Below are positions 25,296-62,120 of a stretch of 64,000 nucleotides of DNA, piece by piece. A model generated the notes under the pieces. It did not search any database, was not told the DNA's origin, and was given only the letters and a program-made list of their open reading frames with translations. The position numbers and the translations under genes were made by a program. The stretch covers positions 160,001 through 224,000 of the forward strand of contig CAXXET010000007.1 of assembly GCA_963666115.2 (NCBI GenBank), given 5' to 3'. Within the stretch, counting starts at the first letter, position 1. Each line of letters opens with the position of its first letter. This stretch comes from Dehalococcoidia bacterium. GTDB lineage: Bacteria; Chloroflexota; Dehalococcoidia; UBA6926.

Positions 25296-25330
25296 CTCGC
25301 CTTATCCGTCCGTTTCTCTCGTCAGTTCCC

Positions 25331-25873: not shown

Positions 25874-25892
25874 CTGAACGAACGCCCCGTTC

Positions 25893-26192
<300 letters not shown>

Positions 26193-28781: not shown

Positions 28782-28796
28782 GGCGGCTTGCTCGGC

Positions 28797-37905: not shown

Positions 37906-37937
37906 AATGAGTAGGCGCTTTGATTGGGGGACGTGAT

Positions 37938-43020: not shown

Positions 43021-43103
43021 GCCCACTCGCTAGGCTTCTAGAGGGCAAGAGTAGAATCCTCTTGTCTACGACTGATCCGTTGGGTCGGCAGGGACAACCC
43101 CGA

Positions 43104-43129
43104 TGGATTTCGGCTTTCGCCGGAGTGAG
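43104..43129. repeat. Short palindromic (REP-like) element
   Basis: tggatttcggctttcgccggagtgag, same family as the copies at 16749, 46080, 59382 and 62031. Confidence 0.55.
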
Positions 43130-43152
43130 GGGAGCAGCATGGCGGACTAGCT

Positions 43153-43392
43153 ATGTTGCCACTGTATGCCGGACGGTCAATACTGATTCCAGTGAGAGCA
43201 TCGCAATCATGCGAACTTTCCACACGATTGGAGGTGCCGATGGCCAGCAATACGGAATGCACGAGTGACCATGGCGCGCCGGCCGAGAAACTCGGCACGA
43301 CGATACACGAAATCTTCAAGCCGTTCGGTGGCGTTGAACTGCCAATCCCTCCCCGTGAACCCATGCGTGAGCCGCCTCAGTTTGGCGACTGA
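43153..43392 (+). pseudogene. FitA/StbC-like antitoxin remnant
   Basis: LGTTIHEIFKPFGGVELPIPPREPMREPP.F resembles the C-terminus of plasmid-stability antitoxins; the N-terminal ribbon-helix-helix looks degenerate and no PIN toxin follows. Confidence 0.5.
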
Positions 43393-43443
43393 GCGCAATC
43401 AAATGTATATCGCCGAATTCAACCCCTGCACCTCAAAGCCAGT

Positions 43444-44424
43444 ATGAACAGCGATCAAGGACCGCGCGCCTCGGAAACCCGCCAATTTGGCCCGCCGGAG
43501 CTTGGTGTCTCGATTGCGCCTTTGGGGGTGGGGGCGTGGCCCTGGGGGTCTACGTGGTATTGGGGGTACGGGAAATCGTACGGCGAGGATGACGTGCGCG
43601 GAGCGTTCCGGGCATCGCTCGCGGCGGGCGTGACGCTGTTCGATACGGCGGAGGTGTATGGGCGGCGGGGCAGTTCGGAGAGGATTCTTGGGCGGTTGGC
43701 GGGAGAGTTGGATGAGGAGTCGGCGGGCGGAGAGCGTCCGTTTGTTGCGACGAAGTATATGCCGCTGCCGTGGCGGTGGCGGGCGGGTGACGTGACGCGC
43801 GCGCTACGGGCGAGCCTGCGGCGTCTTGGGCTGGAGCGCGTCGATCTGTACCAGATTCACTGGCCGGTTGTGCCAGCGCGTCCGCGGCTTGGGCAGTGGA
43901 TGGAGGGTTTGGTCCGGGCGCACGGCGAGGGTCTGGTGGCGTCGGTCGGGGTATCCAACTTTGATGCCGAGTTGACCAGGCGGGCGCATGAGCTTCTGTC
44001 TCGCGCGGGCATCCCGCTGGCGTCCAATCAACTGCCCTACAGCCTGCTCGATCGGCACATCGAGCACGAGGGTTTGCTTGACGCGTGCAGGGAACTGGAC
44101 ATGACGGTGATCGCCTACAGCCCGATTGCGGAGGGGCTGCTGACGGGGAAGTACACTCCGGATGATCGTCCTGCCGGCTATCGGGGGTGGCGGCTGCGGA
44201 AAAAGGTGGTGCAGGTTCAGCCGATAGTCGAGGCGCTGCGTGAGATCGGAGAGCGGCATGAGGGCAAGACACCATCGCAGGTGGCGCTACGCTGGCTGAT
44301 CCAGAAGGGAACTCTCCCAATCCCCGGCGCGAAGACAGCACAGCAAGCGACGGACAACGCGGGGGCGCTGGGGTGGGAACTCACGGAGGAGGAGATGGCG
44401 GCGCTGGATGACGTCTCAGCCTGA
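43444..44424 (+). CDS. Aldo/keto reductase
   Basis: FDTAEVYG, ATK, DLYQIHWP, VGVSNF, AYSPIAEGLLTGKY and PIPGAK motifs. Confidence 0.95.
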   Translation: MNSDQGPRASETRQFGPPELGVSIAPLGVGAWPWGSTWYWGYGKSYGEDDVRGAFRASLAAGVTLFDTAEVYGRRGSSERILGRLAGELDEESAGGERPFVATKYMPLPWRWRAGDVTRALRASLRRLGLERVDLYQIHWPVVPARPRLGQWMEGLVRAHGEGLVASVGVSNFDAELTRRAHELLSRAGIPLASNQLPYSLLDRHIEHEGLLDACRELDMTVIAYSPIAEGLLTGKYTPDDRPAGYRGWRLRKKVVQVQPIVEALREIGERHEGKTPSQVALRWLIQKGTLPIPGAKTAQQATDNAGALGWELTEEEMAALDDVSA

Positions 44425-46911: not shown

Positions 46912-48942
46912 CTAACCCAGGTCGCCCTGATCCCGGCCGCTCGCGTCCTTCCAGGCGGATTCTCGCCATGGGAAGATGTTTGCGGAAGTATCCAGGAGGG
47001 GGAAGTCCTCCCCGGGGTGGAAGACGGCAACGCCGTTTGCCGTGCCAATCCACAGGTTGCCGTTTCGATCCAGCAGGAGTTCATTGACGCGGTTATGGGG
47101 CAGCGGCGTTGACTGTGCCGTGTAGACCATCCACAGTTCGTCGTTCACAAGCCCAATGACGCCGCCGTCCGTGCCCACCCAGTAGCGGCCCGTGGCCGTG
47201 TCTTCGGCGAAGGATCGAACATTGTCGTTGGGGAGGCCTCCATTGGCGCGATTCAGCTTGCTCCACTGCTGGCCGTCAAAGATGGCTGCACCATCGCCGA
47301 TTGTGCCGAACCACATACGGCCCCGGCTGTCCTCGCGGGAGGCGAGGACGAGGTCAGTGCGGATGTCGGCGTTCTCCGTGCGGAGGCTGTTCCAGACGCC
47401 GTTGTCGAGAATGTTGATGCCCTGCCAGTGCGTGAGCCAGACGCGGCCCGCGGAATCTTCCGTGACGACGCTGATGATGTTGGTGTTCAGGCCGTCGCCG
47501 CGGTTATGGAGAGTCCACTCGCCGTCTTCGAGGACGGCGGCACCAAGGCCGGTGGCAAACCACACCCGGTCATTGCTGTCGTAATAGACGTTGAAGAGGG
47601 AATTGCTGGGCAGGCGCTGCTCTCCGTCCGCGTCGCCGAACCTGTCGTATTCAATCCATTCGCCGTGGTTGTAGACGGAGCCGCCGCTCAGGGTGGAAAT
47701 CCATATCCGGCCATACTTGTCTTCCGCGAGGCCGGTCACATAGCGATAGGCGAGGCCGCTGTTTCCCTGCGTAAAGGTCTCCCAGGCGCGCCCGTCGAAC
47801 TTGGCGACCCCCTGGGACGTGCCCACCCAGATGTTGCCCTGGCTGTCTTCCAGGAGGCCGTAGACGTCATTGGCGGGGAGGCCGGTTTCCGTCGGGAAGA
47901 GCCATTCGTAGGTCTCTTCCGCAGGGTCATAAATGTTGACGCCGCCGCCAAAGGTCACGATCCACAACGTTCCGTCTTCGTCGAAGTGGAGGTCTTCAAT
48001 GAAGTGATGCGACAGTTCGCGATAGCGCGTGCTGAGGGGTTCGGAGAACGACCCGCCGTCAAAGCTCGCCAGGCCGACTTCCGTTCCGATCCACAAGAGC
48101 TCCTCATCGTTGACCGTGTCCTCGTCTGGGGGCTGGACGGCAAGGGCCGTCACGAAGTTGGAGGGCATGCCGTTTTGGATGGTATACGCGTCTTCCCGCC
48201 ATTCGCCGTCGGCGCGCAGCACATTCAGGCCGCCGCCGTACGCGCCGATGTACAGATCGCCCTTGGAGTCCTCTAGGAAGACACGGATTTCGTTCGAGGC
48301 AAGAGGGCTGTTGTCCTTTGTGTAAACGGTTCGGCTGCCGTCCACCTCAAACACCACGATGCCGTCCTTCGAACCGACCCAGATACTGCCCTCCGCGTCC
48401 TCGTAAAAAGTCCAGATGCGATCGTCTGGAAGACCGTCGTCTACGCCGAATGATCTCCACCGCCCATCTTCAAAGAGCCGGATGCCCTCGCCCCAGGTGC
48501 CGACCCATATTCGCTCCTGGCTGTCGAGCAGGAGAGCAGAGACAAACACTCCGTCCAGGCCAATACTGTCCGCGTCATCGAGGGGGGACCACTGGCCCTC
48601 GTCCAGCACCACGATGCCGTCCTCCGTGCCGACCCAAACGGAGCCGCCCGGATGGTGGATGAACGAGGTCACGCGCGCGGTGATGCCGCTGTTGTCCGCG
48701 TTATACGTGATGAGCGCCCCGTCGTCATAGAGAGACGCGCCATTGTCGAAGCCCGCGAACCACTTGCGCCCATGGGCGTCTTCGTAGATTTCCGTGAGAT
48801 ACCAGCTTGCGATGCTGGTGTTCTCGACGTTGTACACGGTCCACAGGCCGCGGCCTGAGTTGGTCTGCTCGCCGCCGCCTGCGGCGCCAACGAGGACAAG
48901 CATCACCAGGGATGCCAGCGAGATGCCGCGTACTGCCCTCAA
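46912..48942 (-). CDS. Secreted beta-propeller protein (two-component regulator propeller-type repeats, no kinase domain)
   Basis: Signal peptide after TTG 48942; many L..N.V..L.ED..G..W.GT..G repeats. Confidence 0.85.
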   Translation of the reverse strand: MRAVRGISLASLVMLVLVGAAGGGEQTNSGRGLWTVYNVENTSIASWYLTEIYEDAHGRKWFAGFDNGASLYDDGALITYNADNSGITARVTSFIHHPGGSVWVGTEDGIVVLDEGQWSPLDDADSIGLDGVFVSALLLDSQERIWVGTWGEGIRLFEDGRWRSFGVDDGLPDDRIWTFYEDAEGSIWVGSKDGIVVFEVDGSRTVYTKDNSPLASNEIRVFLEDSKGDLYIGAYGGGLNVLRADGEWREDAYTIQNGMPSNFVTALAVQPPDEDTVNDEELLWIGTEVGLASFDGGSFSEPLSTRYRELSHHFIEDLHFDEDGTLWIVTFGGGVNIYDPAEETYEWLFPTETGLPANDVYGLLEDSQGNIWVGTSQGVAKFDGRAWETFTQGNSGLAYRYVTGLAEDKYGRIWISTLSGGSVYNHGEWIEYDRFGDADGEQRLPSNSLFNVYYDSNDRVWFATGLGAAVLEDGEWTLHNRGDGLNTNIISVVTEDSAGRVWLTHWQGINILDNGVWNSLRTENADIRTDLVLASREDSRGRMWFGTIGDGAAIFDGQQWSKLNRANGGLPNDNVRSFAEDTATGRYWVGTDGGVIGLVNDELWMVYTAQSTPLPHNRVNELLLDRNGNLWIGTANGVAVFHPGEDFPLLDTSANIFPWRESAWKDASGRDQGDLG

Positions 48943-49078
48943 AGTCTCTTCCCCCTTTGACCACACAGTGTAGCGCGGAATGAGGGGTGTGGTACGATAC
49001 CCGTGTCCGAAAATGCCAGGAGCAGCGCGAATCAGTGGTGGGGCCACCTGAGCTGCCTTGCGCAAAAGGGGGTACCAA

Positions 49079-49507
49079 TTGGCGGATGAGGTTCTGGGCG
49101 TGTCCGTGGGGCGCGTCGTGACGTTCACCAAGCAGATTACGGCGCGCGACGTGGAACTCTTTGCCGAGGCGTCCGGAGACGATCAGCCGCTCCATCTCGA
49201 TGACGCAACGGCGGCGCGATCCCGCTTTGGGCAGCGCATCGCGCACGGCATCCTCACTGCGGGCGTCATCTCAGCCGCCATCGGAACGAAGCTCGTGCCC
49301 GACGGCGTCGCCATCTACCTCGGCCAGACGCTCCAGTTCCAGCGGCCCGTGGCGCTCGGCGATACAATCACTGCCACACTTGAGGTGACTGCGCTGGACG
49401 CGGAACGGCGCCGGGCAACCCTCTCCACGACGTGCGCGAACCAGAATGAGGAGACAGTCCTCACCGGCGAGGCGCAGGTGCTGCTCGACACGCTGCGGGA
49501 GGAATGA
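49079..49507 (+). CDS. MaoC / (R)-specific enoyl-CoA hydratase (PhaJ-like)
   Basis: FAEASGDDQPLH and RFGQRIAHG motifs. Confidence 0.9.
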   Translation: MADEVLGVSVGRVVTFTKQITARDVELFAEASGDDQPLHLDDATAARSRFGQRIAHGILTAGVISAAIGTKLVPDGVAIYLGQTLQFQRPVALGDTITATLEVTALDAERRRATLSTTCANQNEETVLTGEAQVLLDTLREE

Positions 49508-49520
49508 CGCAGGAGGCCAG

Positions 49521-50552
49521 ATGTTTGTTCTTGACCAAGGCAGCCGGATCGTCGTTCCGCGAACAGAGATGACGTATCCGGGCCACAACATGCGGATGCA
49601 TGAGAATGCGGCCAACGCGCCCGTCGACCACGTGATGGCGGATCTCGAGGACGCCTGCCCCTACGAGTTCAAGGGCGAGGCGTCCCGGAGCGCCATCATG
49701 GAGGCGTTCAATACGCTCGACTACGGAACCAAGGTCGTTACGTTCCGCCCCAACAACATCCACTCGCGGTTCTTCCTGGGCGACGTTGAGACGATCATGC
49801 GGGGGGCAGTGGACAAGTTCCACGGCATCATCCTGCCCAAAGTCACCGGGCCGGAGGACGTCATCTACGTTTCCCGCCTGCTCGATGCCCTTGAGCTTGA
49901 GGCGGGATGGACGACGAAAGTGGCCATTGAGACCCTGATCGAGACGCCGGAGGCGATGGTCAACGTCAGCAAAATCGCAACGGCGTCGCCGCGGATGGCG
50001 GGGCTGATTTTTGGCATCGCGGACTTTGCGGCGGTGATGGGCGTCGTGGACGTCGTTGAGGATCAGAACAAGAACTTCCACTACGCCAAGCAGCACATGG
50101 CAGTCGCGGCAAAGGCAGCCGAGCTGCACGCCATCGACAATGTGTTTTTCACCCTCGTGAGGCGCGACACGTCAGAGGAGGACGGTGCGAAGATCAACGA
50201 GGCGCTGCTCCAGAAGAACGTCGAAGCCGCGAACCTGGGCATGGACGGCACGTGGATCATCCATCCCCAGCAGGCTCCCATGGCCAACATGGCCTATACG
50301 CCTAGTGATTCTCTCACCGAGTACGCCTCCCGCCTGATTGACAACTACCATGAGCGCGGCGGCGGCGCGTTCGTCTTCGAGGAGACGGGCGAATTCGTGG
50401 ATGAGGCGACGGCCAAGGGCTACCTTGTGCTGCTGGCCAAGGCGGCGCAGGCGGGCAAGGTGGAGGCCGGCTGGCTGTCCGAGCACGCCGCGCGACATGC
50501 GGAAATCACGGGCTATGACGTGCTGCGGCAAGCGGGCCGACACGTCGCCTAG
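49521..50552 (+). CDS. CitE-family CoA ester lyase (malyl-CoA / beta-methylmalyl-CoA lyase-like)
   Basis: DLEDAC, FRPN, LPKV, LIETP, FGIADFAA and G.W.IHP.Q motifs; AGGAGG ribosome binding site before ATG 49521. Confidence 0.85.
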   Translation: MFVLDQGSRIVVPRTEMTYPGHNMRMHENAANAPVDHVMADLEDACPYEFKGEASRSAIMEAFNTLDYGTKVVTFRPNNIHSRFFLGDVETIMRGAVDKFHGIILPKVTGPEDVIYVSRLLDALELEAGWTTKVAIETLIETPEAMVNVSKIATASPRMAGLIFGIADFAAVMGVVDVVEDQNKNFHYAKQHMAVAAKAAELHAIDNVFFTLVRRDTSEEDGAKINEALLQKNVEAANLGMDGTWIIHPQQAPMANMAYTPSDSLTEYASRLIDNYHERGGGAFVFEETGEFVDEATAKGYLVLLAKAAQAGKVEAGWLSEHAARHAEITGYDVLRQAGRHVA

Positions 50553-50575
50553 AGAAGTCGCCGTCCGAGAGCGTC

Positions 50576-51736
50576 ATGCCTGATCCCGTCATCGAACCGC
50601 AGGACGCCATCGCGGCTGAGGTGCGCCGATGGGTTGACCGGGAGGTTGTCCCGGTCGTTGATGAGCTTGAGCACAACAACACCTTCCCGGATCAACTCGT
50701 GCAGGGGATGCGGGAACTCGGCCTCTTCGAGCTGATGATTCCCCAGGAGTACGGCGGCATCGGCGCGACGTACGTCAGCTACTCCGGCGTGGTGGAGGAA
50801 TTGGCGCGGGGGTGGATGAGCCTCGGCGGAATCCTGAACACCCACGTCATCATCACGCATCTCGTTTCGACATACGGCACTGACGACCAGAAGAAGCGCT
50901 ACCTGCCGCAGTTGGCGACGGCGGAACGGCGCGGGGCGCTCACCATCACGGAGCCCAACGCGGGGTCCGACGTACAGGCCATTCAAACGGTTGCAGTAAA
51001 GGACGGCGACGATTACGTGGTGAACGGTTCCAAGCTGTTCGTGAGCAACGGGCGGCGCGGCGGGCTTTTTGCCATGGCCGTCAAGACCGACCCGACCACC
51101 GATCCGCGCTACCGCGGCATCTCCTGCCTGCTCGTTCAGCCCGATTACCCCGGTTTCGTCGTCACACGAGACATCGAGAAGCTCGGCTACAAGGGCATCG
51201 AGGCATCCGAGCTATCGATGGACGATCTCCGTGTGCCGGCAGGCAACCTGCTCGGCGGCGAGGAGGGCCAGGGATTCTTCCAAATACTGAGCGGCGTTGA
51301 GGTGGGGCGCGTGAACACGGCGGCGCGAGCCGTCGGCGTGGCGCGGGCGGCATTCGAGGCCGCGGCGACGTATGCGCAGCAGCGGCAGGCATTCGGCAAG
51401 GCAATCGGCGAGCACCAGGCCATTCAACTCAAGCTCGCTGACATGTACACGAACATCACCGCAGCGCGGCTGTTGGCTCGGTGGGCCGCAGGCGTCAAGG
51501 ACCAGGGGGGGCGCGCCGACACGGAAGTCGGCATGGCCAAGCTGTTTGCGACGGAGGTCGCGACAGAGGCGACGCTGGAATCCATGCGCATCCACGGCGG
51601 GATAGGCTATACGAAGGAGATGCCGGTGGAGCGGTTCTTCCGGGACGCGCCCGGCATGATGATCTATGAAGGGACGAACGAAATCCAGCGGACGATCATC
51701 GCGCGAAGCGTGCTGCAACGGTACGCTGTGAGCTAG
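50576..51736 (+). CDS. Acyl-CoA dehydrogenase (candidate methylsuccinyl-CoA dehydrogenase)
   Basis: IPQEYGG, TEPNAGSD, NGSKLFVSNG, RQAFGK, IHGGIGY and IYEGTNEIQ motifs. Confidence 0.92.
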   Translation: MPDPVIEPQDAIAAEVRRWVDREVVPVVDELEHNNTFPDQLVQGMRELGLFELMIPQEYGGIGATYVSYSGVVEELARGWMSLGGILNTHVIITHLVSTYGTDDQKKRYLPQLATAERRGALTITEPNAGSDVQAIQTVAVKDGDDYVVNGSKLFVSNGRRGGLFAMAVKTDPTTDPRYRGISCLLVQPDYPGFVVTRDIEKLGYKGIEASELSMDDLRVPAGNLLGGEEGQGFFQILSGVEVGRVNTAARAVGVARAAFEAAATYAQQRQAFGKAIGEHQAIQLKLADMYTNITAARLLARWAAGVKDQGGRADTEVGMAKLFATEVATEATLESMRIHGGIGYTKEMPVERFFRDAPGMMIYEGTNEIQRTIIARSVLQRYAVS

Positions 51737-51751
51737 GTGGGAGAGGGTCTT

Positions 51752-52216
51752 ATGCAATTCGGACGGTATCTTGAGGAGTTTGAAGAGGGGGCGGTGTACA
51801 AGCACTGGCCCGGCAGGACGATTACGCAGGCGGACGATATCCAGTTCTGCATGTTGACGATGAACCACCACCCGCTGCATATCGATGAGGAGTTCGGCAG
51901 GAACAGCCAGTTTGGTCAGAACGTGGTCGTCGGCAACCTCGTCGTGGACATCGCCTTTGGCCTCAGCGTGCCGGACGTGTCCGGGCGCGCAATCGCCAAC
52001 CTGGGGCTGGACGAGATTCGATTCCACAAGCCGACGTTCCACGGGGATACTATCTATGCGGAGACCGAGGTGCTGTCCGTCAGGGCCAGTGAGAACCGTC
52101 CTGACCGGGGCGTCGTGACGGTTGAGACGCGGGCGACGAATCAACGCGAAGAGACGGTGATGACGTTCAAGCGGAGCGTGCTGATTCCGCGAAAGCCGGA
52201 TGACAGCGAGGGTTAG
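51752..52216 (+). CDS. MaoC-family dehydratase (candidate mesaconyl-CoA hydratase)
   Basis: GRYLEEF..G..YKHWPGRT and F..LTMNHHPLH.D motifs. Confidence 0.88.
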   Translation: MQFGRYLEEFEEGAVYKHWPGRTITQADDIQFCMLTMNHHPLHIDEEFGRNSQFGQNVVVGNLVVDIAFGLSVPDVSGRAIANLGLDEIRFHKPTFHGDTIYAETEVLSVRASENRPDRGVVTVETRATNQREETVMTFKRSVLIPRKPDDSEG

Positions 52217-52227
52217 GGGGAGCAGGG

Positions 52228-53895
52228 ATGGCAACACCCACCTCTGAGGCGGATATCCGCGCGGCGCAGGCGGCGTGGGAGGAGAAGACGGCAGGCGCGC
52301 GCGAGCGCAAGGAGTCGTTCGGCACCGATTCCGTCGAGGACATCAGCCGAGCCTACTCGCCCCAGAGCGTCCCTGACCTGGACTTCCTGAATGACGTCGG
52401 TTTCCCGGGCGAGTACCCGTTCACACGCGGCGTCCAGCCCACGATGTACCGTGGGCGGCTGTGGTCCATGCGGCAGTACGCTGGGTTCGGCACGCCGACG
52501 GAGTCCAATGAGCGGTTCCGCTACCTGCTGGAGCAGGGGCAGACAGGCTTGTCCGTGGCATTCGACCTGCCAACGCAGCTTGGCTATGACTCCGACGATT
52601 CGCACTCGCTCGGGGAGGTCGGCAAGGTCGGTGTGGCGATTGATTCGCTGCGCGACATGGAGTTGATGTTCCAGGACATCCCGCTGGACAAGGTCAGCAC
52701 GTCGATGACGATCAACGCGCCCGCTGCCCTGCTGGTCGCCATGTACGTGGCGGTTGGCGAGAAGCAGGGTCATGAACCCGCTGCACTCACCGGCACGGCG
52801 CAGAACGACGTGCTCAAGGAATACATTGCGCGCGGGACGTATATCTATCCACCGGGGCCGTCTCTGCGACTGGCGGCGGATTTGGTGGGCTACTGCGCGC
52901 GGGAGATGCCACGATTCAACAGCATCTCGATTAGCGGCTACCACATGCGTGACGCGGGCAGCACTGCGGCGCAGGAGATTGCGTTCACGTTCGCCAACGC
53001 CATTGCGTACGGCGAGGCATTCGTTGAACGCGGTGTCGACGCTGATTCATGGGGCCCGCGCGTTTCATGGATTTTCAATACGCACAACAACTTCCTAGAG
53101 GAGGTCGCCAAGTACCGAGCGCTACGCCGCATGTGGGCGAAGATCATGAAGGAGCGGTTCGGGGCAGAGGATCCGCGTTCATGGATGCTCCGCACGCACA
53201 CGCAGACCGGCGGCTCGACGCTGACGGCGCAGCAGCCGCAGAACAACATCGTCCGCGCGGCCTACCAGGCCATGGCGGCGGTGCTGGGCGGGGTGCAGAG
53301 CCTCGCGCTGTCCTGTTACGACGAGGCGCTGGGAATTCCAACCGATGAGGCGCAGCGCGTCGCGCTGCGCACCCAGCAGATTTTGGCGCACGAAACGGGC
53401 GTGGCGGACACGGTCGATCCCTTGGCGGGTTCCTACTTCGTCGAGTGGATGACCAACAACCTGGAAGAAAAGGCGTGGCAGTACCTGCGGCAAATCGAGG
53501 ACCTGGGCGGCGCGGTGACGGCAATCGAGAATGGCGTCATCCAGAAGGAGATCGCGCAGGCATCGTATGACATGGCCCAGTCCATTGAGAACGGCGATCA
53601 GCTTGTGGTCGGCGTCAACTCGTTCACGGACGGCAACGAAGACCAATCGCTGCAAGTGTTCCGCGTGGACAACCGCGTCGTCGCTGAGCAGCATCAGTCG
53701 TTGGAGCGCGTGCGCGGCGAGCGCAGCGCGGAGGACGTGAACAACGCGCTGGAGGCTCTTCGGGCGGCTGCGCGAGGCAACGATGACCTGATGGCGCCCA
53801 TTTTGGGGGCGGTGCGTGCGTATGCGACGACGGGCGAGATCTGCAGTGCGCTGCGCGACGTGTTTGGGGAATACACGCCGCCGGTGGAGGTGTAG
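52228..53895 (+). CDS. B12-dependent acyl-CoA mutase, substrate-binding large subunit
   Basis: [40 protein letters not shown] and ISISGYH motifs; no C-terminal DxHxxG B12-binding domain. Confidence 0.93.
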
Positions 53896-53961
53896 ACGGC
53901 GGGGTAGGATTACAGGGTTAGTAGGGAAGCTAGGAAGGTTACAGAAGAGGGGGTAAGGACG

Positions 53962-54711
53962 ATGGCAGGACTGTTGGACGGCAAGGTGGCGCTCGTGACG
54001 GGCGGCTCTCGCGGCATTGGCCGCGCAACGGCAATCGAACTGGCAGCGAGCGGCGCGGCAGTTGCCGTGAATTACAACGCGAACGCGGACGCGGCCAATG
54101 AGGTCGTGAGCGAGATTACAGGCGCGGGCGGCAAGGCCGGCGCGTACCAGTTCAATATCGCGGACCGCGCGGCGGTTGATTCGCAGATCGATCAGATTGT
54201 GTCCGATCTCGGACCGGTCACCATCCTGGTGAACAACGCGGGCGCGACGGCGGACAGGACGCTCAGGAACATGTCCGACGAGCAGTGGGACAGCGTCATC
54301 GAGGTCAACCTGACCGGAACGTTCAACGTGACGAAGAAGGTCTGGAACATCATGGGCGAGGCCGGCGGCGGCCATATCGTCAACATCAGTTCCCTCGTTG
54401 GCGAGGCAGGACGGCTTGGCCTGATCAACTACTCGACCGCCAAGGCGGGGCTCCTGGGCTTCACCAAGACAGCGGCGCGGGAGGGCGCGCGGACGAACAT
54501 CCAGGTGAACGCGATCGCGCCCGGGTTCATTGACACGGATATGATTTCCGGCCTGACGCCGGAGATGAAGGAGAACCTCAAGAAGGAGGCCGTTCTTGGC
54601 CGCCTCGGCGAGGTTGAGGAGATCGCGAAGGTCGTGCGTTTCATCGTGAGCGAGGCGAGCTACATGACGGGCGCGACGATCGACGTGAACGGCGGGATGT
54701 ACTACCGCTAG
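53962..54711 (+). CDS. Acetoacetyl-CoA / 3-oxoacyl reductase (PhaB/FabG-like)
   Basis: TGGSRGIG, NNAG, NYSTAKAG and APGFIDTDM motifs; adjacent to a thiolase. Confidence 0.9.
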   Translation: MAGLLDGKVALVTGGSRGIGRATAIELAASGAAVAVNYNANADAANEVVSEITGAGGKAGAYQFNIADRAAVDSQIDQIVSDLGPVTILVNNAGATADRTLRNMSDEQWDSVIEVNLTGTFNVTKKVWNIMGEAGGGHIVNISSLVGEAGRLGLINYSTAKAGLLGFTKTAAREGARTNIQVNAIAPGFIDTDMISGLTPEMKENLKKEAVLGRLGEVEEIAKVVRFIVSEASYMTGATIDVNGGMYYR

Positions 54712-54754
54712 GACTCCGGCGGCAAACGGGATAAACCCAGGGGGGATTGGGACC

Positions 54755-55939
54755 ATGAGCGATGCAGTGATCGTGAGCGCGGTGCGAACCGCGGTGGGGA
54801 CGATGGGCGGCGGCCTTTCCAACGTGGCGGCGCCAAAGCTGGGCGCAGTCACCATCCAGGCGGCCATTGGGCGCGCCGGCATTCCGGACGAGATTCTGCC
54901 GGATGAGGTGCTGATGGGGAATGTCATCCAGGCCGGACTCGGACAGAACCCGGCCCGCCAGTCCGCCATCCAGGGCGGCCTGCCCGTCAGCGTGCCCGCC
55001 ACCACCATCAACAAGGTGTGCGGCTCCGGCCTCAAGACCGTCATCCTGGCCTCGCAGGCCATCCGCGCGGGCGATGCCAGCTACATCGTCGCGGGCGGCA
55101 TGGAGAACATGAGCGCAGGGCCGTACCTGGTGCAGAACGGCCGCTACGGCTATCGTCTCGGCAACGCCGAGCTGGTCGACGCCACGGTGAACGACGGGCT
55201 GTGGTGCGCGATGGAAGACTGCCACATGGGCATCACGGCGGAGAACGTCGCCGCAGAGTACGGCGTCACCCGCGATGACCAGGACGCCTTCTCGGCGGAG
55301 TCGCAGCGGCGCGCCGGCGCGGCGATGAGCAGCGGCCGGTTTGCGGATGAGATCGTCAACGTGGAAATCCCGCAGCGGCGCGGCGACCCGGTCGTGGTGG
55401 ATACCGACGAGTACCCGCGCCCGGACTCCACGTCGGAGACCCTGGGGCGCCTCCGTCCCGCCTTCACGGGCGAGGGCACGGTGACGGCGGGCAACGCCTC
55501 CGGCATCAACGACGGCGCGGCGACGACCATCGTCGTTTCGGAGGAGTTCGCGAATGAGCACGGCTTGAAGCCGTTGGCGAAAGTGCGCGGGTATGCGTCC
55601 GCGGGCGTGGAGCCGCGCATCATGGGCATCGGCCCAATCGGCGCAATGCAGAAGGCCGTCCGCCACGCCGGGCTGTCCATCAGCGACATCGACCTCTTCG
55701 AGTTGAACGAGGCGTTCGCGGCGCAGTCCGTGGCCGTCACGCGCGAGCTTGAGCTTGACTCCGACAGGGTGAACGTGAACGGCGGCGCGATCGCCATCGG
55801 GCACCCCATCGGCGCGTCCGGCACGCGCATCCTCGTGACCCTGCTACACGAGATGCAGAAGCGGGAGGCGCAGTTCGGGATGGCCTCGCTGTGCATCGGC
55901 GGCGGCCAGGGCATCGCGCTGGTGGTTGAGGCCGCGTAG
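54755..55939 (+). CDS. Acetyl-CoA C-acetyltransferase (thiolase, PhaA/AtoB-like)
   Basis: NKVCGSG, ELNEAFA, GHPIGASG and LCIGGGQG motifs. Confidence 0.96.
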   Translation: MSDAVIVSAVRTAVGTMGGGLSNVAAPKLGAVTIQAAIGRAGIPDEILPDEVLMGNVIQAGLGQNPARQSAIQGGLPVSVPATTINKVCGSGLKTVILASQAIRAGDASYIVAGGMENMSAGPYLVQNGRYGYRLGNAELVDATVNDGLWCAMEDCHMGITAENVAAEYGVTRDDQDAFSAESQRRAGAAMSSGRFADEIVNVEIPQRRGDPVVVDTDEYPRPDSTSETLGRLRPAFTGEGTVTAGNASGINDGAATTIVVSEEFANEHGLKPLAKVRGYASAGVEPRIMGIGPIGAMQKAVRHAGLSISDIDLFELNEAFAAQSVAVTRELELDSDRVNVNGGAIAIGHPIGASGTRILVTLLHEMQKREAQFGMASLCIGGGQGIALVVEAA

Positions 55940-56057: not shown

Positions 56058-56351
56058 ATGGCGCGCACATTTCAGCCGCTGGGGGATCGGATTGTGATCA
56101 AGCCGATTGAGCAGGAGGAGGTCTCCAAGGGGGGCCTGGTTCTGCCGGATACGGCGCGGGAACGCCCGCAGGAGGGCGAGGTCATCGCCGCAGGCCCGGG
56201 ACGGCTCACGGAAGAGGGCAACCGCATTCCGATGGAACTCGTCGTCGGCGACAAGGTCCTGTACGCCAAGTACGCGGGAACCGAACTCAAGGAGGACGAC
56301 GAGGACTACCTGGTGCTCCGGGAGTCCGACATCCTGGCGAAAATCAGCTAG
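56058..56351 (+). CDS. groES: Co-chaperonin GroES
   Basis: PLGDRIV, GG.VLPDTA and KYAGTE motifs. Confidence 0.97.
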
Positions 56352-57995
<1,644 letters not shown>

Positions 57996-58840: not shown

Positions 58841-59381
58841 GCCGCTGATCTCCCCTCATTCCAGGGAGTCATTGGGGTTCTTCTTTCGTGGTGTCCCTTG
58901 TGCTCTCCTTTCGGTTCGTTCCGGTTTGGCGGGTCTTGGGGGGTGCATCGGCGCTGCGGGCCTCCAGCCTTTTGGTTGAGCCGTCATCGGTTCGGCGCAG
59001 TGGGAGCTTTGTTCCATCGCGTCGGCCACCGTTTTAGGCCGCGCTCCGGTCTCCAGATATTCGCGCCAGAAGCTACCCTGGCGCCGGACGACTCTCGCTG
59101 CGCCGCGATTGCCGCCCCCCTATACGCCCCGTCAGCCCACCGTCACTGGCCGCCCGTGGCCACGAGCAAACCCGTCGTGGTTTCCTGGCCGGGAAACCGG
59201 AGGGCCTTGTCGCCGATGCACCCCTCGCAGGGAGCGCCCTCCATTGCGCGCCCCCGGGGATTGTTGTGACGGCCCGGGTGTTAACTTGCCCTCGCCGCCG
59301 TCGAAAAGGCTTGTTTCGATGTGGGGAGGTTAGTACAGGGGTTTTGTTTGGTGCAAGGGGTGGTGGCACATGGGGGGGGCT

Positions 59382-59407
59382 GTCATTCCCGTGCACGGAG
59401 GAATCTA
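59382..59407. repeat. Short palindromic (REP-like) element
   Basis: gtcattcccgtgcacggaggaatcta, an imperfect copy of the family. Confidence 0.55.
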
Positions 59408-59500
59408 GCACTCCCTCCGAATCCCCCGCGTAGGCGGGGGCACCGTATACTGAGTATGGACGGCAAATCGAAGGGATCTGGGGCAGCATTTGGAGGGTAC

Positions 59501-60808
59501 ATGACAGTGACCCAGCGGCCGAGGGTGGGTGCCATAGGTCTGGATGCCTCGCATCTGGATTCTATCAGGCCGCTTTGCGGAGAGCTTAGGCCAGCCGACT
59601 CCTTGGGTGAATATTGCCAGCTCTACAGTTGGACGGAAACGGATATTTTGGTAGCGCGTGACTTCGATTCTTGGGAGAATGATCCTTCTCCTGTCAAAAT
59701 CAATCCTGATGTCAATCTACTCGCTTTTGGTGACTTGTATGTTATGTGGCCGGATACGTATTTTGTAAGGCACGATCACGCTACCGAACACTTCGCATCG
59801 ACTAGCGAGAACACGGAACGTGAACTTACGGTCACGGGCTCTTGTCCTGATTCATACAGAGACCTCGCCAATGAGTTGGTCAGGGAGTTGCCGACAAGGC
59901 AGAGCCCCCCTACAGTGATCGAGACTTCCAGAGGATCGCGTAAGGCCTTGGTTTCAACTACCTCAAAACGTCCCGTCGCCTTGCACATCGATTTGCCATC
60001 CCAGAAAGAAGGGCCGGACAGGAAGTCAGTACAGGCGGTCGCACTCCTCCTCCCTAACGTCTCTAACCTCGCGGCTTGGTTCAGAGCCTTCCTCTCGGGG
60101 GTACATGAAAGGAATCCCCACCAGGTTCCGCATGCCCCGCCTCGTCTGAGCGATCCATCAGATTGGTACACGCCTGATGAGAGGGAGTTGGCTGCTCAAA
60201 TCTCGGAAACCAACGCGGAAATCACCGCTTTAAGGGACAAGCATGACCGTCTGGAAGAACTACTGGCCGCAAAGACGACAGAGGCCGATGCAGGGATTCG
60301 GCGCGCTCTCTGGGCAGACGGAGACGACTTGACTGCTGCGACCATGAAGATTCTTTCCGGCCTAGGCTTTAGAGTCCGGGATATGGATGCCGAATTGGAG
60401 AAGGGGGAGCCCAAGCGCGAAGACCTGCGACTGACACTCCCTGAACGCCCTAAGTGGAATGCCATTGTGGAAGTCAAAGGCTATTCGGGCGGCACAAGGA
60501 CGAACGATGCCCGTCAAATTAGGGAGCATCGCGATCGCTACATGCAGGAGGAAGGTCGGCAGCCTGACTTGACCCTCTGGCTAGCCAACACTCATCGCAA
60601 CTCCGACCCTTCCGGTAGGCCCCTGCCGGACGGAAACGTAAAGGACACCGCTGAGGCGGTCGGCATCGTTCACGCGCAAGTGCATGATCTCCTTCGACAA
60701 TGGCTGTTTGTCCAGGCAGGCATTCATGATGTAGCAATTGTTGTGCAAAGTTTGGTCGATGCCGAACCCGGGCTCTGGACTCCGCCAACCCCTCCTGGCC
60801 ACGCATAG
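59501..60808 (+). CDS. Hypothetical protein with coiled coil and C-terminal PD-(D/E)xK nuclease-like domain
   Basis: GGAGG before ATG 59501; coiled coil ELAAQI...LEELL; LGF.V...EDLRL...IVEVKG...DARQ motif; visibly lower GC than the flanks. Confidence 0.65.
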   Translation: MTVTQRPRVGAIGLDASHLDSIRPLCGELRPADSLGEYCQLYSWTETDILVARDFDSWENDPSPVKINPDVNLLAFGDLYVMWPDTYFVRHDHATEHFASTSENTERELTVTGSCPDSYRDLANELVRELPTRQSPPTVIETSRGSRKALVSTTSKRPVALHIDLPSQKEGPDRKSVQAVALLLPNVSNLAAWFRAFLSGVHERNPHQVPHAPPRLSDPSDWYTPDERELAAQISETNAEITALRDKHDRLEELLAAKTTEADAGIRRALWADGDDLTAATMKILSGLGFRVRDMDAELEKGEPKREDLRLTLPERPKWNAIVEVKGYSGGTRTNDARQIREHRDRYMQEEGRQPDLTLWLANTHRNSDPSGRPLPDGNVKDTAEAVGIVHAQVHDLLRQWLFVQAGIHDVAIVVQSLVDAEPGLWTPPTPPGHA

Positions 60809-60962
60809 CGAACTGCCCTTCTTCCGCAGAGCGCACCGTGTTGTGGTTTCCTGTACGCCCAAGTTAAGTACAGAGACCGATTCCAGTGCGGCCACGGCTT
60901 TAGGGCGACAACTACTTCCGCCTAGGCGGCGAGATTTTGACGAGGCATCCGGTCAGTTTCCC

Positions 60963-61865
60963 TCACTCGCTTTGTTCCAGCACGTCCACCCTAAAGTCCT
61001 CCAGATTTGGCGTGTCGGCCCCCTCGTAGAGAATCTCAAACGGCTTGACATCGCCCTTGAGCGGAGCCCTCGGCATGTAACGCACGACATAGCAATAGGG
61101 TAGGCTATCGCTGGAGTACAGTTGAACAGAAAAGATTAGTTCAGTGGGCGGCAACTGAAATCTTCCACGCTGTGCCCTAGAACCGAAAGCAATTCTCAAC
61201 CCCCTGTTGGACCAGAAACTTAAGACATCCACTTGCGCCTGAGATTGCGGAGCGATAGACCTACTGGTTGGGTACTGCTGCGAGGCGTGGTCGGCCCATG
61301 TCAATTCAACTGGGTAAGGCACGAACTCATATCCGCGGTAGTTGTATGCTGCCCAGTACGCTTGACTAGTTCCAGCAGATGGTGCAGTGCGTTGTCGCGG
61401 CCGCATACCTGTTAGAAGTACTCGGCAGTCTAATGCCCGCGAATTCGACTGATTCGCAACAGTTATGTGCAGGTATTCCGTATCTATCAATGCATCCGCA
61501 AGCTTTTCGTTCAAATCGTCCGATTTGCGGATGTCCACGACACGTAATTTCGGCTTAAGCGCCTCACGCATGGTGGCCAATTCTCGCCGCGCTTCATTGC
61601 GCTGAGCAAAGGGCGCCTTTGCGGACGCAAACAAGAACGGCAACAGAAGGAAAGACAGTAATCCCAGCGTCGCTATCAGCGGTAGTGGCCAACTGACATT
61701 CGATAGAGTTGCTAAAGCAATCAGGAGGGCCAACAACGCGTCGAGAATCAGGAACACAGCGGATCGAAGTAGATTCGTTCCATCCTTCCATGTCCGAACC
61801 AGAATGCCTTGTGAAAGGTCGGTCGTTTGTGTCGACCGACCTTTCGGGCTGTTTGCCAACATCAT
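60963..61865 (-). CDS. Hypothetical protein with two N-terminal TM helices
   Basis: 300-aa ORF with two hydrophobic helices then a soluble domain; visibly lower GC. Confidence 0.6.
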   Translation of the reverse strand: MMLANSPKGRSTQTTDLSQGILVRTWKDGTNLLRSAVFLILDALLALLIALATLSNVSWPLPLIATLGLLSFLLLPFLFASAKAPFAQRNEARRELATMREALKPKLRVVDIRKSDDLNEKLADALIDTEYLHITVANQSNSRALDCRVLLTGMRPRQRTAPSAGTSQAYWAAYNYRGYEFVPYPVELTWADHASQQYPTSRSIAPQSQAQVDVLSFWSNRGLRIAFGSRAQRGRFQLPPTELIFSVQLYSSDSLPYCYVVRYMPRAPLKGDVKPFEILYEGADTPNLEDFRVDVLEQSE

Positions 61866-61924
61866 TGGTCATCTCCTTGTCGTGCGTCCAATGTAGCGTC
61901 TTTGGTTGGGTGGCGCGAGTGAGG

Positions 61925-62120
61925 ATGGATTCCAGGCGGCGACGGAAGAACGGAAAGGTCATCCTTCGACGGGCTCAGGGGGAACGGCGGGCGGCGGGAG
62001 ATTCTTCGCTGCGCTCAGAATGACGCCCGATGGATTCCGGCCTCGTATCGAAGCACGGGGCATGCTTTCGCCGGTATGAGTGGCAGGCAAGGCCGTAGCG
62101 ATCGCGCGGGTCGCCCCTCA
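61925..62120. repeat. Cluster of different short palindromic elements
   Basis: tccttcgacgggctcagg (61962), agattcttcgctgcgctcagaatgac (61999), and tggattccggc...gctttcgccggtatgag with an internal insert (62031-62080). Confidence 0.6.

Follow-up and report, generated by a model that had tools for sequence, protein, structure and literature searches.

The window, that is, the whole 64-kb stretch of DNA analysed, carries an operon of seven open reading frames, all on the plus strand, which spans positions 49058 or 49079 to 55939. The gene order is PhaJ-like MaoC hydratase (MaoC#1), CitE-family lyase, acyl-CoA dehydrogenase (ACAD), second MaoC hydratase (MaoC#2), acyl-CoA mutase large subunit, SDR and thiolase, with intergenic gaps of 13, 23, 0, 11, 66 and 43 nt. 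The tight co-directional run of the preliminary description was thereby confirmed for all seven genes, with gaps of 0–66 nt. A beta-propeller gene on the minus strand (46912–49131) lies upstream and groES-groEL (56058–57995) downstream; both flanks are unrelated to the operon.

MaoC#1 begins at 49058 (TTG) or at 49079 and ends at 49507. The product is a single hot-dog, PhaJ-like (R)-specific enoyl-CoA hydratase (Pfam MaoC_dehydratas, 81.8 bits). Among solved structures, 5cpg (102.7 bits) and 1iq6 (87.9 bits), both themselves (R)-specific enoyl-CoA hydratases, are closest to it. The SDR (53962–54711; Pfam adh_short, 199.6 bits) is FabG/PhaB-like, scoring 271 bits against TIGR01830 FabG (cut-off 297.75) and 248.4 bits against TIGR01829 acetoacetyl-CoA reductase (cut-off 302.1), and it passes the NCBIfam subfamily NF009466. 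The thiolase (54755–55939) is PhaA-like, with Pfam Thiolase_N at 312 bits and Thiolase_C at 176 bits, and exceeds the cut-off of TIGR01930 (471.8 against 240.55 bits).

The lyase ORF as listed begins at 49446; an in-frame ATG at 49521, following AGGAGG, gives a CitE-superfamily CoA-ester lyase of MCL type of 343 aa (49521–50552; Pfam HpcH_HpaI, 98.5 bits). Its best solved relatives are the malyl-CoA lyases of R. sphaeroides (4l9y, 117.5 bits) and M. extorquens (5ugr, 115.7 bits), and with 95 bits against the Chloroflexus MCLC 4l7z it is nearer MCLR than MCLC. The catalytic and Mg2+ residues compared were MCLR Glu44, Asp45, Arg76, Glu141, Asp168 and Asp299, as given in PMC3832036. These align with E43, D44, R76, E141, D168 and D294 of the lyase, so that all are kept, and the six are invariant in 19 family members. 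Asp is present where malyl-CoA thioesterases are described as having Glu, and the protein covers the MCL-type insertion region. Relatives at 58–64% identity in Binatia adjoin a canonical long Mcd, a MeaA-type mutase and MeaB, and those outside Binatia adjoin Ccr-like reductases or Mtk-like ligases. Across the lyase-family loci a fused mutase and MeaB lie beside the lyase in 20, most of them titled Binatia, a long ACAD is found in 33, a Ccr-like reductase in 11 and an Mtk-like ligase in 20. The fused mutase is 60–64% identical to annotated "protein meaA". Two of the long ACADs were scanned; both carry about 170 extra aa at the N-terminus, and one has the (2S)-methylsuccinyl-CoA dehydrogenase 8ciw (405 bits) as its best solved relative. 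Potential use of the ethylmalonyl-CoA (EMC) pathway has been reported for most Binatota orders (PMC8262859).

The ACAD (50576–51736) is a short protein of 386 aa with three Acyl-CoA_dh domains (Pfam), of the FadE3 / methylsuccinyl-CoA dehydrogenase-like group. FadE3 4iv6 is its best solved relative at 429 bits, with PdMCD 6es9 at 259 bits. Of the PdMCD arginines Arg252, Arg376 and Arg421 (PMC5798300), one of three is retained: the Arg421 equivalent is kept, Arg252 is replaced by His and Arg376 by Lys. The dehydrogenase had been likened to those of streptomycete ccr-meaA clusters, and it indeed shares 48% identity with its counterpart in the S. rimosus cluster (L083); 53% is shared with the dehydrogenase of an Azospirillum lyase/MaoC/PrpD/ACAD/CoA-transferase cluster. 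In the ACAD tree it falls in a clade (support 96/95) with its counterparts from two Streptomyces ccr-meaA clusters and from itaconate/methylsuccinate clusters; these two groups are not separated there, and by identity the window ACAD stands equally close to both (48% and 53%). For the itaconate/methylsuccinate cluster type, the C4-CoA ester is the substrate of the characterised members (PMC12290011).

MaoC#2 (51737–52216) starts at the base right after the ACAD stop codon and encodes a short, 159-aa mesaconyl-CoA hydratase-like hot-dog protein. The Pfam matches are MC_hydratase (76.8 bits, spanning the first half of the profile) and MaoC (71.7 bits); the best NCBIfam match is RipB_Ich at 136 bits, below the cut-off of 340, and the solved relatives are of Mch type (4e3e, 109.6 bits; 8hgn, 107.7 bits). 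Its two top matches among 251 plasmid records were those of S. rimosus (L083) and Streptomyces sp. BHT-5-2 (L088). Here too the proposed streptomycete likeness held, with 54% identity to the S. rimosus ccr-meaA-cluster MaoC and MQFGR...YKHWPG present in both; identity to the MaoC of the Azospirillum cluster is 48%. In the MaoC tree the window clade joins the Streptomyces ccr-meaA hydratases (83/95), and the hydratases of itaconate clusters form a separate group (82/91).

The mutase large subunit (52228–53895; Pfam MM_CoA_mutase, 712 bits) belongs to a split B12 acyl-CoA mutase, and no B12-binding domain was found in the ORF with Pfam. Among solved structures HcmA 4r3u scored best (547.7 bits), and the MCM 1req gave 453.6 bits. 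The protein retains the carboxylate-binding MCM Tyr89 (RQYAGF) and Arg207 (IARGTY), as for a carboxylated substrate, where HcmA has Ile and Gln. Residues 360–362 read ALS, whereas MCM-context and HcmA sequences carry HTN at this point and 5/5 MeaA carry QLP; ALS is shared by 6/6 window-clade mutases and by 119 of the 120 closest homologues. The clade formed with the mutases of L019, L029 and L070 (99/94) is found only beside the set of lyase, ACAD and MaoC, in four cluster layouts. The tree places it sister to MeaA at 85/88, the MeaA branch being very long (2.35), and an AU test did not reject its placement with the HTN mutases (p = 0.131). Identity is 40% to MeaA and 56–60% to split mutases in plain MCM contexts: in Ilyobacter the neighbours are mce, MeaB and methylmalonyl-CoA decarboxylase genes, in Brevibacillus mce. 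At 36 columns separating five MeaA from four MCM-context sequences the window clade is MCM-like in 23, MeaA-like in 2 and different or mixed in 11. The protein is not a MeaA orthologue; it is split and bears ALS in place of QLP. Judged by its sequence, the mutase looks like a previously undescribed type of B12 mutase.

All seven genes occur in identical order in 17 of the 80 related loci that were kept, every one of them from Dehalococcoidia/Chloroflexota MAGs. Three further loci (L019, L020, L023) hold a variant cluster in which a second CitE paralogue replaces MaoC#1, which is thus present in the 17 and absent from these three. Since 17 of 80 loci hold the genes in order and three more are variants, the arrangement is more than chance. 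Lyase identity is 86–98% across the 17 window-like loci and 91–98% to the nearest loci, titled Dehalococcoidia or Chloroflexota MAGs, so that the probable Chloroflexota origin given in the preliminary description stands. The SDR adjoins the mutase in 20 loci, as it does in L029, and the thiolase is the final gene of the cluster in 20 loci. A lack of conservation in relatives had been named as a finding that would count against the pathway reading; the cluster is conserved.

Among the 57 window ORFs scanned with Pfam, NCBIfam or both, there was no Ccr, epimerase, B12-binding subunit, carboxylase or CoA-transferase, which bears out the earlier remark that the first three are missing from the window. 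Neither Ccr, epimerase, B12-binding subunit, MeaB nor propionyl-CoA carboxylase was found in the 64-kb window or within 10 kb in the window-like loci. In L070 and L076 the gene immediately upstream of the lyase encodes a Ccr-like reductase; these loci resemble the window at 54% identity for the ACAD, 58% for MaoC and 63% for the mutase. The reductase scores 281–299 bits against TIGR01751, below the cut-off of 378.55, and its best solved relative is the alcohol dehydrogenase 2eih (251 bits), with Ccr at 170 bits. Of the four KsCcr CO2-pocket residues Asn81 is kept, Phe170 is replaced by Tyr, Glu171 by Asp and His365 by Thr. The homologues P0257 and P0261 of this reductase appear to belong to the genomes of the window-like clusters L017 and L022, judged by their longest-contig values (1,721,455 and 1,987,973), which match the contigs carrying those clusters.

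The seven genes map one-to-one onto EMC steps. The operon may well encode most of a non-canonical EMC-type route, a reading held with moderate confidence; it resembles a pared-down, non-standard form of the pathway that builds cell carbon from acetate. The substrates of all steps, the way in which flux runs, the C1 regiochemistry and the use of ethylmalonyl-CoA by the mutase are our inferences. Thiolase (as acetyl-CoA C-acetyltransferase), SDR (as acetoacetyl-CoA reductase) and MaoC#1 would convert two acetyl-CoA to crotonyl-CoA, MaoC#1 acting on (R)-3-hydroxybutyryl-CoA. A candidate reductive carboxylase encoded elsewhere, the short Ccr-like reductase of related genomes, might then supply ethylmalonyl-CoA. 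Together with a B12 subunit whose gene lies elsewhere, the split ALS-type mutase would convert this to methylsuccinyl-C1-CoA, the ACAD would oxidise the latter to mesaconyl-C1-CoA, and MaoC#2 would hydrate mesaconyl-C1-CoA to beta-methylmalyl-CoA. The lyase would cleave beta-methylmalyl-CoA to propionyl-CoA and glyoxylate, and may also interconvert malyl-CoA with acetyl-CoA and glyoxylate. A C1-type lower module yielding glyoxylate and propionyl-CoA is more likely than not. That the mutase carries the ethylmalonyl-CoA step, whether or not it also serves the methylmalonyl-CoA step, is a tentative assignment from sequence, to which we give slightly less than even weight. The EMC-like reading put forward in the preliminary description is supported by the ACAD and MaoC#2 trees, the gene context of the lyase and the conservation of the cluster, and its caution that the route may be a variant was apt, in that the mutase is no MeaA orthologue, the ACAD is no long Mcd and no canonical Ccr was seen.

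The mutase could instead be an ordinary methylmalonyl-CoA mutase for the final EMC reaction, in which methylmalonyl-CoA derived from propionyl-CoA becomes succinyl-CoA, within an EMC-type operon whose ethylmalonyl-CoA mutase and Ccr are encoded elsewhere or whose C5 intermediates are taken up. Tyr89, Arg207 and their flanking motifs are as in split MCMs, and the higher identity to MCM-context mutases than to MeaA, the 23 MCM-like columns and the AU test all point the same way. We nevertheless consider this unlikely: ALS replaces the HTN found in every MCM-context reference, the mutase clade always stands beside the ACAD, MaoC and lyase set, methylmalonyl-CoA epimerase and propionyl-CoA carboxylase are absent alongside it in the 64-kb window, and the C2-to-C4 steps of the operon would be pointless without an ethylmalonyl-CoA step.

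Less probable again is that lyase, ACAD and MaoC#2 serve catabolism of a C5-dicarboxylate (methylsuccinate, mesaconate or itaconate) by way of C4-CoA esters and then (S)-citramalyl-CoA, ending in acetyl-CoA and pyruvate, as in the Pseudomonas-type cluster, with mutase, SDR and thiolase engaged in other acyl-CoA metabolism. The identities to the Azospirillum proteins, from a cluster that also holds MmgE/PrpD, would fit, as would the His/Lys/Arg pattern at the three Mcd arginine positions, common to the Azospirillum-type ACAD, and the RipB/Ich match of MaoC#2. The Chloroflexus MCL also cleaves citramalyl-CoA. In PMC3832036 (3S)-citramalyl-CoA is listed among MCL substrates and the C. aurantiacus enzyme is described as tri-functional, and PA0879-type ACADs are described as (RS)-methylsuccinyl-C4-CoA dehydrogenases (PMC12290011). 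Against this, CoA-transferase and MmgE/PrpD isomerase are absent from the window and from 20 window-like loci, the lyase is 30% identical to the Azospirillum cluster lyase and longer by the MCL-type insertion and lid, MaoC#2 stands apart from itaconate-cluster hydratases, and ACAD and MaoC#2 are conserved next to a mutase whose product would be a C1 ester.

A generic short-chain beta-oxidation or PHB-turnover operon with an incidental mutase and CitE-like gene would account for the usual beta-oxidation families (thiolase, SDR, MaoC, ACAD) and the generic NCBIfam matches of ACAD, SDR and thiolase, but is very improbable given the carboxylate-binding Arg of an ACAD that groups with dicarboxyl-CoA clusters, the mesaconyl-CoA hydratase profile match of MaoC#2, and a lyase and mutase kept in place across 20 loci, the lyase family travelling with Mcd, MeaA and Ccr-like genes. 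Grouping with generic beta-oxidation clades had been the other outcome expected to speak against the EMC-type route; ACAD and MaoC#2 group instead with the Streptomyces ccr-meaA proteins, and the lyase co-localises with Mcd, MeaA and MeaB in Binatia.

Among known systems, the Pseudomonas-type itaconate/methylsuccinate cluster comprises Ict, Ich, Ccl, Mcd-C4 and Msi (PMC12290011). The window shares with it the short ACAD and short MaoC families and a CitE-type lyase, but lacks CoA-transferase and MmgE/PrpD isomerase and has the extra mutase, thiolase and SDR; its lyase is of another subfamily and its hydratase lies apart in the tree. The split mutase architecture is common to the Ilyobacter and Brevibacillus MCMs and HcmAB (2-hydroxyisobutyryl-CoA mutase), from which the window differs in having ALS, not HTN, and no adjacent B12 subunit, MeaB or epimerase; nor is the mutase HCM-like at the Ile/Gln positions. 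With the Chloroflexus 3-hydroxypropionate bi-cycle the window shares the phylum and the Mcl and Mch families (4l7z, 95 bits; 4e3e, 110 bits), but the hydratase is half-size, Mct and Meh are absent, and the context of ACAD, mutase and thiolase does not suit that cycle. The Streptomyces ccr-meaA clusters (L083, L088) comprise Ccr, MeaA/Ecm, a CitE-type lyase and a short MaoC and ACAD; the last three form a trio beside a B12 mutase, as they do in the window, and the ACADs have a common His/Lys/Arg pattern at the Mcd arginine positions. These clusters differ in gene order and in possessing a canonical Ccr of 445 aa and a QLP-bearing fused MeaA of 670 aa, both absent from the window. Their lyase is only 32% identical to that of the window, which has the extra thiolase, SDR and PhaJ-like MaoC. 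The canonical alphaproteobacterial/Binatia EMC system uses a long Mcd with N-terminal extension, a double hot-dog Mch of about 350 aa, a fused Ecm and Mcl1, whereas the window has a 159-aa single hot-dog hydratase, a split mutase and an ACAD that is 35–36% identical to long Mcd and lacks the extension and two of the three arginines. The chemistry nevertheless runs in the same order in both, and the lyase family is common to the window and the Binatia-type loci.

Seven open reading frames on the plus strand, spanning 49058-55939, make up the cluster, and the families of all were confirmed with Pfam and NCBIfam models. In order they encode a PhaJ-like MaoC hydratase (49058 or 49079 to 49507; 149 residues counted from 49058), a CitE-family lyase (49521-50552; 343 residues), an acyl-CoA dehydrogenase (ACAD; 50576-51736; 386 residues), a second MaoC hydratase (51737-52216; 159 residues), the large subunit of an acyl-CoA mutase (52228-53895; 555 residues), an SDR (53962-54711; 249 residues) and a thiolase (54755-55939; 394 residues), with gaps of 13, 23, 0, 11, 66 and 43 nt between them. 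The lyase ORF was listed from 49446; translation likely begins at the in-frame ATG 49521, which has AGGAGG ahead of it. The preliminary description interpreted these genes as being of ethylmalonyl-CoA (EMC) pathway type, which gene context and homology back, and we give an even chance to a non-canonical EMC-type operon. Its product would convert two acetyl-CoA, by way of crotonyl-, ethylmalonyl-, methylsuccinyl-, mesaconyl- and beta-methylmalyl-CoA, to glyoxylate and propionyl-CoA. The substrate of the mutase is the chief uncertainty of the EMC reading, and the regiochemistry of the ACAD and hydratase is the second.

The flanks of the cluster are unrelated to it, with a minus-strand beta-propeller protein upstream and groES-groEL downstream. 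Crotonyl-CoA carboxylase/reductase (Ccr), the epimerase and the B12-binding subunit had been described as absent from the window, and indeed none of these, nor MeaB, an acyl-CoA carboxylase or a CoA-transferase, was found among the 50 other window ORFs scanned. Epimerase, B12-binding subunit, MeaB and propionyl-CoA carboxylase were found neither in the window nor in the 10-kb flanks of the window-like loci. A consensus scan gave no promoter sites (shuffles gave 1.3) and three terminator-like sites, all within the lyase gene, a number below that of the shuffles (4.7); the Rfam scan returned no matches and the tRNA scan no tRNAs. The groEL gene follows the cluster both in the window (within 56058-57995) and in L019, a relative of 78% identity (within 16522-18538), and synteny therefore reaches beyond the operon. 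groES was confirmed in the window, while L019 shows only an unscanned ORF of fitting size (16522-16818).

Elsewhere in the window, a gcvT-gcvH-gcvP cluster (36832-41235) encodes glycine dehydrogenase as a single 965-residue protein; matches to both GcvPA and GcvPB models mark it as a fusion of the two subunits. The minus strand carries an alternative complex III type set at 18204-25960 (ActD, an NrfD-like membrane subunit, a 4Fe-4S protein, a molybdopterin-family subunit, and multihaem and monohaem cytochromes c) and, within 26753-30194, a 504-residue protein with two IstB/AAA-type ATPase regions, which adjoins dnaB and could represent an atypical helicase loader. An ORF of 486 residues at 41560-43020 has a C-terminal Mrr-type restriction endonuclease domain and lies within a stretch of lower G+C (0.579, 42001-44000). 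Two ORFs at 59321-61865 (495 and 300 residues), in the part of the window with the lowest G+C (0.558, 60001-62000), had no Pfam or NCBIfam match. The leucine-rich-repeat protein at 62121-63629 (minus strand) contains about ten tandem 72-nt units and matches the LRR parts of NCBIfam effector/internalin models, far under their cut-offs.

Related loci were sought in one genome per species using an alignment of 19 lyase relatives as the query. The pattern was matched by 554 stretches, 342 of which encode a relative, and the best 80 of the 342 were kept. The seven proteins of the window and the seed proteins were compared by BLASTP with all ORFs of the 80 loci; on low-GC loci genes were called by ORF length. 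All 80 are from metagenome-assembled genomes (MAGs), titled Dehalococcoidia, Chloroflexota/Chloroflexia, Binatia/Binataceae and others, and the closest homologues of the mutase and lyase are from Chloroflexota or Dehalococcoidia MAGs, where named. The same seven genes in the same order were present in 17 of the best 80 loci (L003-L018 and L022), the lyases being 86-98% identical, and in three others (L019, L020 and L023) a second CitE paralogue replaces the first MaoC. Chromosome-titled contigs carrying these window-like loci measure 1.85-2.45 Mb. Among the same 80, a fused mutase adjoining the lyase, together with MeaB, was present in 20, a long ACAD (at least 500 residues) in 33, a Ccr-like reductase in 11 and a SucC/SucD-like (Mtk-like) CoA ligase in 20; five loci, mostly cut by contig ends, had none of the listed features.

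Among solved structures the lyase is closest to two malyl-CoA/beta-methylmalyl-CoA lyases, that of R. sphaeroides (4l9y, 117.5 bits) and that of M. extorquens (5ugr, 115.7 bits); the Chloroflexus-type malyl-CoA lyase (MCL), CLYBL, RipC and M. tuberculosis CitE score lower. For the R. sphaeroides enzyme (MCLR), PMC3832036 assigns catalysis to Arg76 and Asp299 and Mg2+ coordination to Glu141 and Asp168, and names Glu44 and Asp45 as ligands of water; it also describes a change of Asp299 to Glu in malyl-CoA thioesterases and an extra insertion after strand 6 in MCLs. On alignment to 4l9y, residues E43, D44, R76, E141, D168 and D294 of the lyase correspond to Glu44, Asp45, Arg76, Glu141, Asp168 and Asp299, and all six are invariant across the 19-member lyase alignment. 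The insertion region is covered with small gaps only relative to MCLR and is about 19 residues longer than in Azospirillum Ccl; the lyase thus has the six MCLR-type residues, the Asp in the C-terminal lid and the insertion. It is 31-36% identical to the plasmid-borne lyases topping the matches listed and 32% to its counterpart in the ccr-meaA cluster of S. rimosus, its NCBIfam equivalog scores are far under the cut-offs, and it falls outside close membership of the characterised MCLR cluster. Given this low identity to anything characterised, the lyase represents a separate MCL-like subfamily.

The second CitE paralogue of the three variant loci has 306 residues and heads the cluster (L019, 9060-9980; L020, 202-1122; L023, 9059-9979). 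Pairwise BLASTP of the L019 copy against the main lyase gave 27% identity, in an alignment that ends before the Asp299 column, and the paralogue could be a malyl-CoA thioesterase-like partner. A reading of the window genes as the mycobacterial leucine/itaconate trio (CitE, MaoC, FadE19) was dropped; matches of the lyase to CitE structures from M. tuberculosis reach only about 31-35 bits, and a carboxylase is lacking.

Gene company supports the predicted role of the lyase with malyl-CoA and beta-methylmalyl-CoA. At Binatia-type loci the lyase relatives stand beside a long ACAD with an extension of about 170 residues, for which the closest solved structures are (2S)-methylsuccinyl-CoA dehydrogenase (8ciw) at 405 bits and PdMCD (6es9) at 311 bits. 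The fused mutase of these loci is 60-64% identical to sequences labelled 'protein meaA' in records from Ruegeria, Paracoccus, Methylobacterium and Streptomyces, and identity to other mutases falls to 53% and then to about 40%. The EMC pathway has been predicted for Binatota, with potential use by most of its orders (PMC8262859).

No B12 domain was found in the window mutase with Pfam or NCBIfam models, and its best solved match is HcmA, at 547.7 bits versus 453.6 bits for P. shermanii methylmalonyl-CoA mutase (MCM). Because HcmA is the best match, a 2-hydroxyisobutyryl-CoA mutase acting with PhaB and thiolase was considered. The motifs RQYAGF and IARGTY of the mutase align with Tyr89 and Arg207 of P. 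shermanii MCM, which we take to be the carboxylate pocket, and the MCM pocket is present in this respect. These positions are taken by Ile and Gln in HcmA (4r3u) and in the protein of M. petroleiphilum, and the 2-hydroxyisobutyryl-CoA reading was rejected since the window mutase has Tyr and Arg instead. Residues 360-362 are ALS in all six members of the clade of the window mutase and in 119 of the 120 closest homologues, whereas this site reads HTN in HcmA, in three type III mutases and in five references from MCM contexts, and QLP in five of five MeaA (ethylmalonyl-CoA mutase, Ecm). Tyr/Arg/HTN is the commonest state among wider-family representatives (34 of 150), in an alignment that is rough for distant rows and shows the site to vary widely. 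The Glu four residues downstream (HTN region near Glu370) is assumed by us to contact the adenosyl ribose in MCM, which would put the ALS motif near the active site. Judged by the retained Tyr/Arg pair and the ALS motif, the mutase belongs to a distinct Tyr/Arg acyl-CoA mutase subfamily marked by ALS.

Trees were each built from 21 hand-picked rows rather than from all 80 loci. The mutases of the window, L019, L029 and L070, all beside the lyase set, form one clade (99/94), which is sister to MeaA at 85/88, the MeaA stem being 2.35 long. In an AU test, grouping of the window clade with other Tyr/Arg mutases was not rejected (p = 0.131), and the sister relation to MeaA is not established. At the 36 columns that are invariant within five MeaA and within four MCM-context mutases and differ between the two sets, the window clade is MCM-like in 23, MeaA-like in 2 and other or mixed in 11. 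The mutase differs from the MeaA/Ecm type in being 40% identical to MeaA of S. rimosus and Binatia and in having ALS rather than QLP. A plain MCM within an EMC-type operon is rather unlikely. Among plasmid records, the nearest large subunits are split mutases in plain MCM contexts, 56-60% identical to that of the window, and the pocket pair is that of MCM; the score against the MCM equivalog model NF006944 is 615.7 bits (cut-off 876), ALS stands in place of HTN, and the B12 domain is absent. The MCM contexts themselves consist of a B12 subunit, MeaB, mce and methylmalonyl-CoA decarboxylase genes around the split mutase in Ilyobacter, and of mce and a carboxyltransferase in Brevibacillus.

A Pseudosulfitobacter plasmid, on which a split mutase accompanies an itaconate-type cluster, was rejected as a parallel: the mutase is ICM-like and 37% identical, has Leu/Asn at the pocket positions and lies in a separate operon. 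In the two plasmid records (L086, 5607-11757, and L089) the five-gene itaconate/methylsuccinate-type cluster lies beside this operon, which comprises the split ICM-like mutase, a B12 subunit, MeaB, a thioesterase, carboxylase subunits and an ACAD.

For the Ccr step, two related loci (L070 and L076) have a zinc-ADH-family protein directly upstream of the lyase; identity to the window proteins in these loci is 54% for the ACAD, 58% for the MaoC and 63% for the mutase. Nine further loci have related proteins, placed divergently beside the lyase set. The top NCBIfam model for these Ccr-like reductases is crotonyl-CoA carboxylase/reductase (TIGR01751), at 281-299 bits with a cut-off of 378.55. A search with the L070 protein returned two homologues, P0257 (63% identical) and P0261 (61%), and we infer that these belong to the genomes with the window-like clusters L017 and L022. 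P0257 is 35-36% identical to real Ccrs, and its best solved relative is the alcohol dehydrogenase 2eih, with Ccrs next. The CO2 pocket of KsCcr is described as Asn81, Phe170, Glu171 and His365; a tyrosine ring likewise shields water, and there is partial compensation between His365 and Glu171 (PMC6628652). Relative to KsCcr, P0257 keeps Asn81 and has Tyr for Phe170, Asp for Glu171 and Thr for His365. The EMC gene set is incomplete at Ccr, with none in the window and, in relatives, a reductase below the cut-off and without His365. L070 (6027-17345) and L076 also bring together two family III CoA-transferases, the Ccr-like reductase, the lyase, a SucC/SucD-like ligase, a short ACAD and a short MaoC; of the two loci, L070 alone has a confirmed ALS mutase. 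The presence of the transferases hints that CoA is shifted between C1 and C4 or that free C5 acids are taken up.

The best solved relative of the window ACAD is M. smegmatis FadE3 (4iv6, 429 bits), and PdMCD (6es9) scores 259 bits. The carboxylate cluster of methylsuccinyl-CoA dehydrogenase (Mcd) is given as Arg252, Arg376 and Arg421 in PMC5798300; the ACAD has His, Lys and Arg at the aligned positions. It departs from PdMCD-type Mcd in its length of 386 residues, in lacking the N-terminal extension of about 170 residues and in its incomplete arginine cluster. A C4 route, in which the ACAD and hydratase would lead to acetyl-CoA and pyruvate, is improbable. Itaconate-type clusters (Azospirillum, Pseudosulfitobacter, Caballeronia) contain a lyase, MaoC, MmgE/PrpD, an ACAD and a family III CoA-transferase, their ACADs and MaoCs being 49-53% and 48-54% identical to the window ACAD and second MaoC, and the ACAD of such clusters in C. 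necator and P. aeruginosa is reported as (RS)-methylsuccinyl-C4-CoA dehydrogenase (PMC12290011). No family III CoA-transferase (Ict) and no MmgE/PrpD isomerase was found in the window, nor in any of the 20 window-like loci.

Enzyme trees had been proposed as a check on the EMC-type interpretation, and they favoured it in part. The second MaoC groups with the hydratases of L070/L076 and of Streptomyces ccr-meaA clusters (83/95) and stays separate from the itaconate-type hydratases (82/91). The window ACAD shares a clade (96/95) with those of Streptomyces ccr-meaA clusters, itaconate-type clusters, L070/L076 and L001, within which EMC-context and itaconate-context relatives are not separated; the long Mcd and another type of short ACAD make up the other clade (99/98). 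Since EMC and C4 clusters share these ACAD and MaoC families, homology does not by itself decide between C1 and C4 regiochemistry; C1 is favoured by the hydratase tree and by the adjoining mutase. A generic beta-oxidation operon, with this lyase and mutase among its genes, is highly improbable.

Another layout was seen at L043 (7789-11038) and at L047, L054, L071, L075 and L077, where a short MaoC, a short ACAD, a second short MaoC and the lyase occur together, with a divergent Ccr-like gene in five of the six and none detected in L075. Its ACAD retains Mcd Arg252 and groups with long Mcd (99/98), and the layout looks like a short Mcd with a two-gene mesaconyl-CoA hydratase (Mch).

The EMC pathway is reported from Alphaproteobacteria, Actinobacteria and possibly spirochaetes (PMC5798300), and no description of it in Chloroflexota was found in a literature search of titles and abstracts. 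Should the cluster work as proposed, it would give a large uncultured Dehalococcoidia lineage a route of acetate or C2 assimilation, three EMC steps (Ecm, Mcd and Mch) would be filled by non-orthologous or shortened enzymes, and a new specificity class would be added to the B12 acyl-CoA mutases. Tentatively, the ALS split mutases might have evolved separately as a third family of ethylmalonyl-CoA mutases that possibly also rearrange methylmalonyl-CoA. They would then be part of a streamlined EMC pathway with short Mcd and Mch, the new MCL-type lyase subfamily and a short Ccr-like reductase without His365, widespread in uncultured Dehalococcoidia and letting small-genome aerobes assimilate acetate. 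Compact EMC enzymes would be of interest for designing synthetic CO2-fixation cycles built on the EMC module.

The likeness to streptomycete ccr-meaA clusters, pointed out in the preliminary description, was borne out by the S. rimosus record (L083). ORF calling and BLASTP gave, in a row, Hbd, a TetR regulator, a 445-residue Ccr, a 670-residue MeaA, a lyase, a 176-residue MaoC and an ACAD of about 400 residues. The MaoC is 54% identical to the second MaoC of the window, with MQFGR...YKHWPG common to both, and the ACAD is 48% identical to that of the window and alike in its His/Lys/Arg pattern. With the lyase at 32%, the window thus has adjacent homologues of Mcd, mesaconyl-CoA hydratase and beta-methylmalyl-CoA lyase, encoded together as in the S. 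rimosus trio, with functions predicted from context. Streptomyces sp. BHT-5-2 (L088) has the same layout as S. rimosus.
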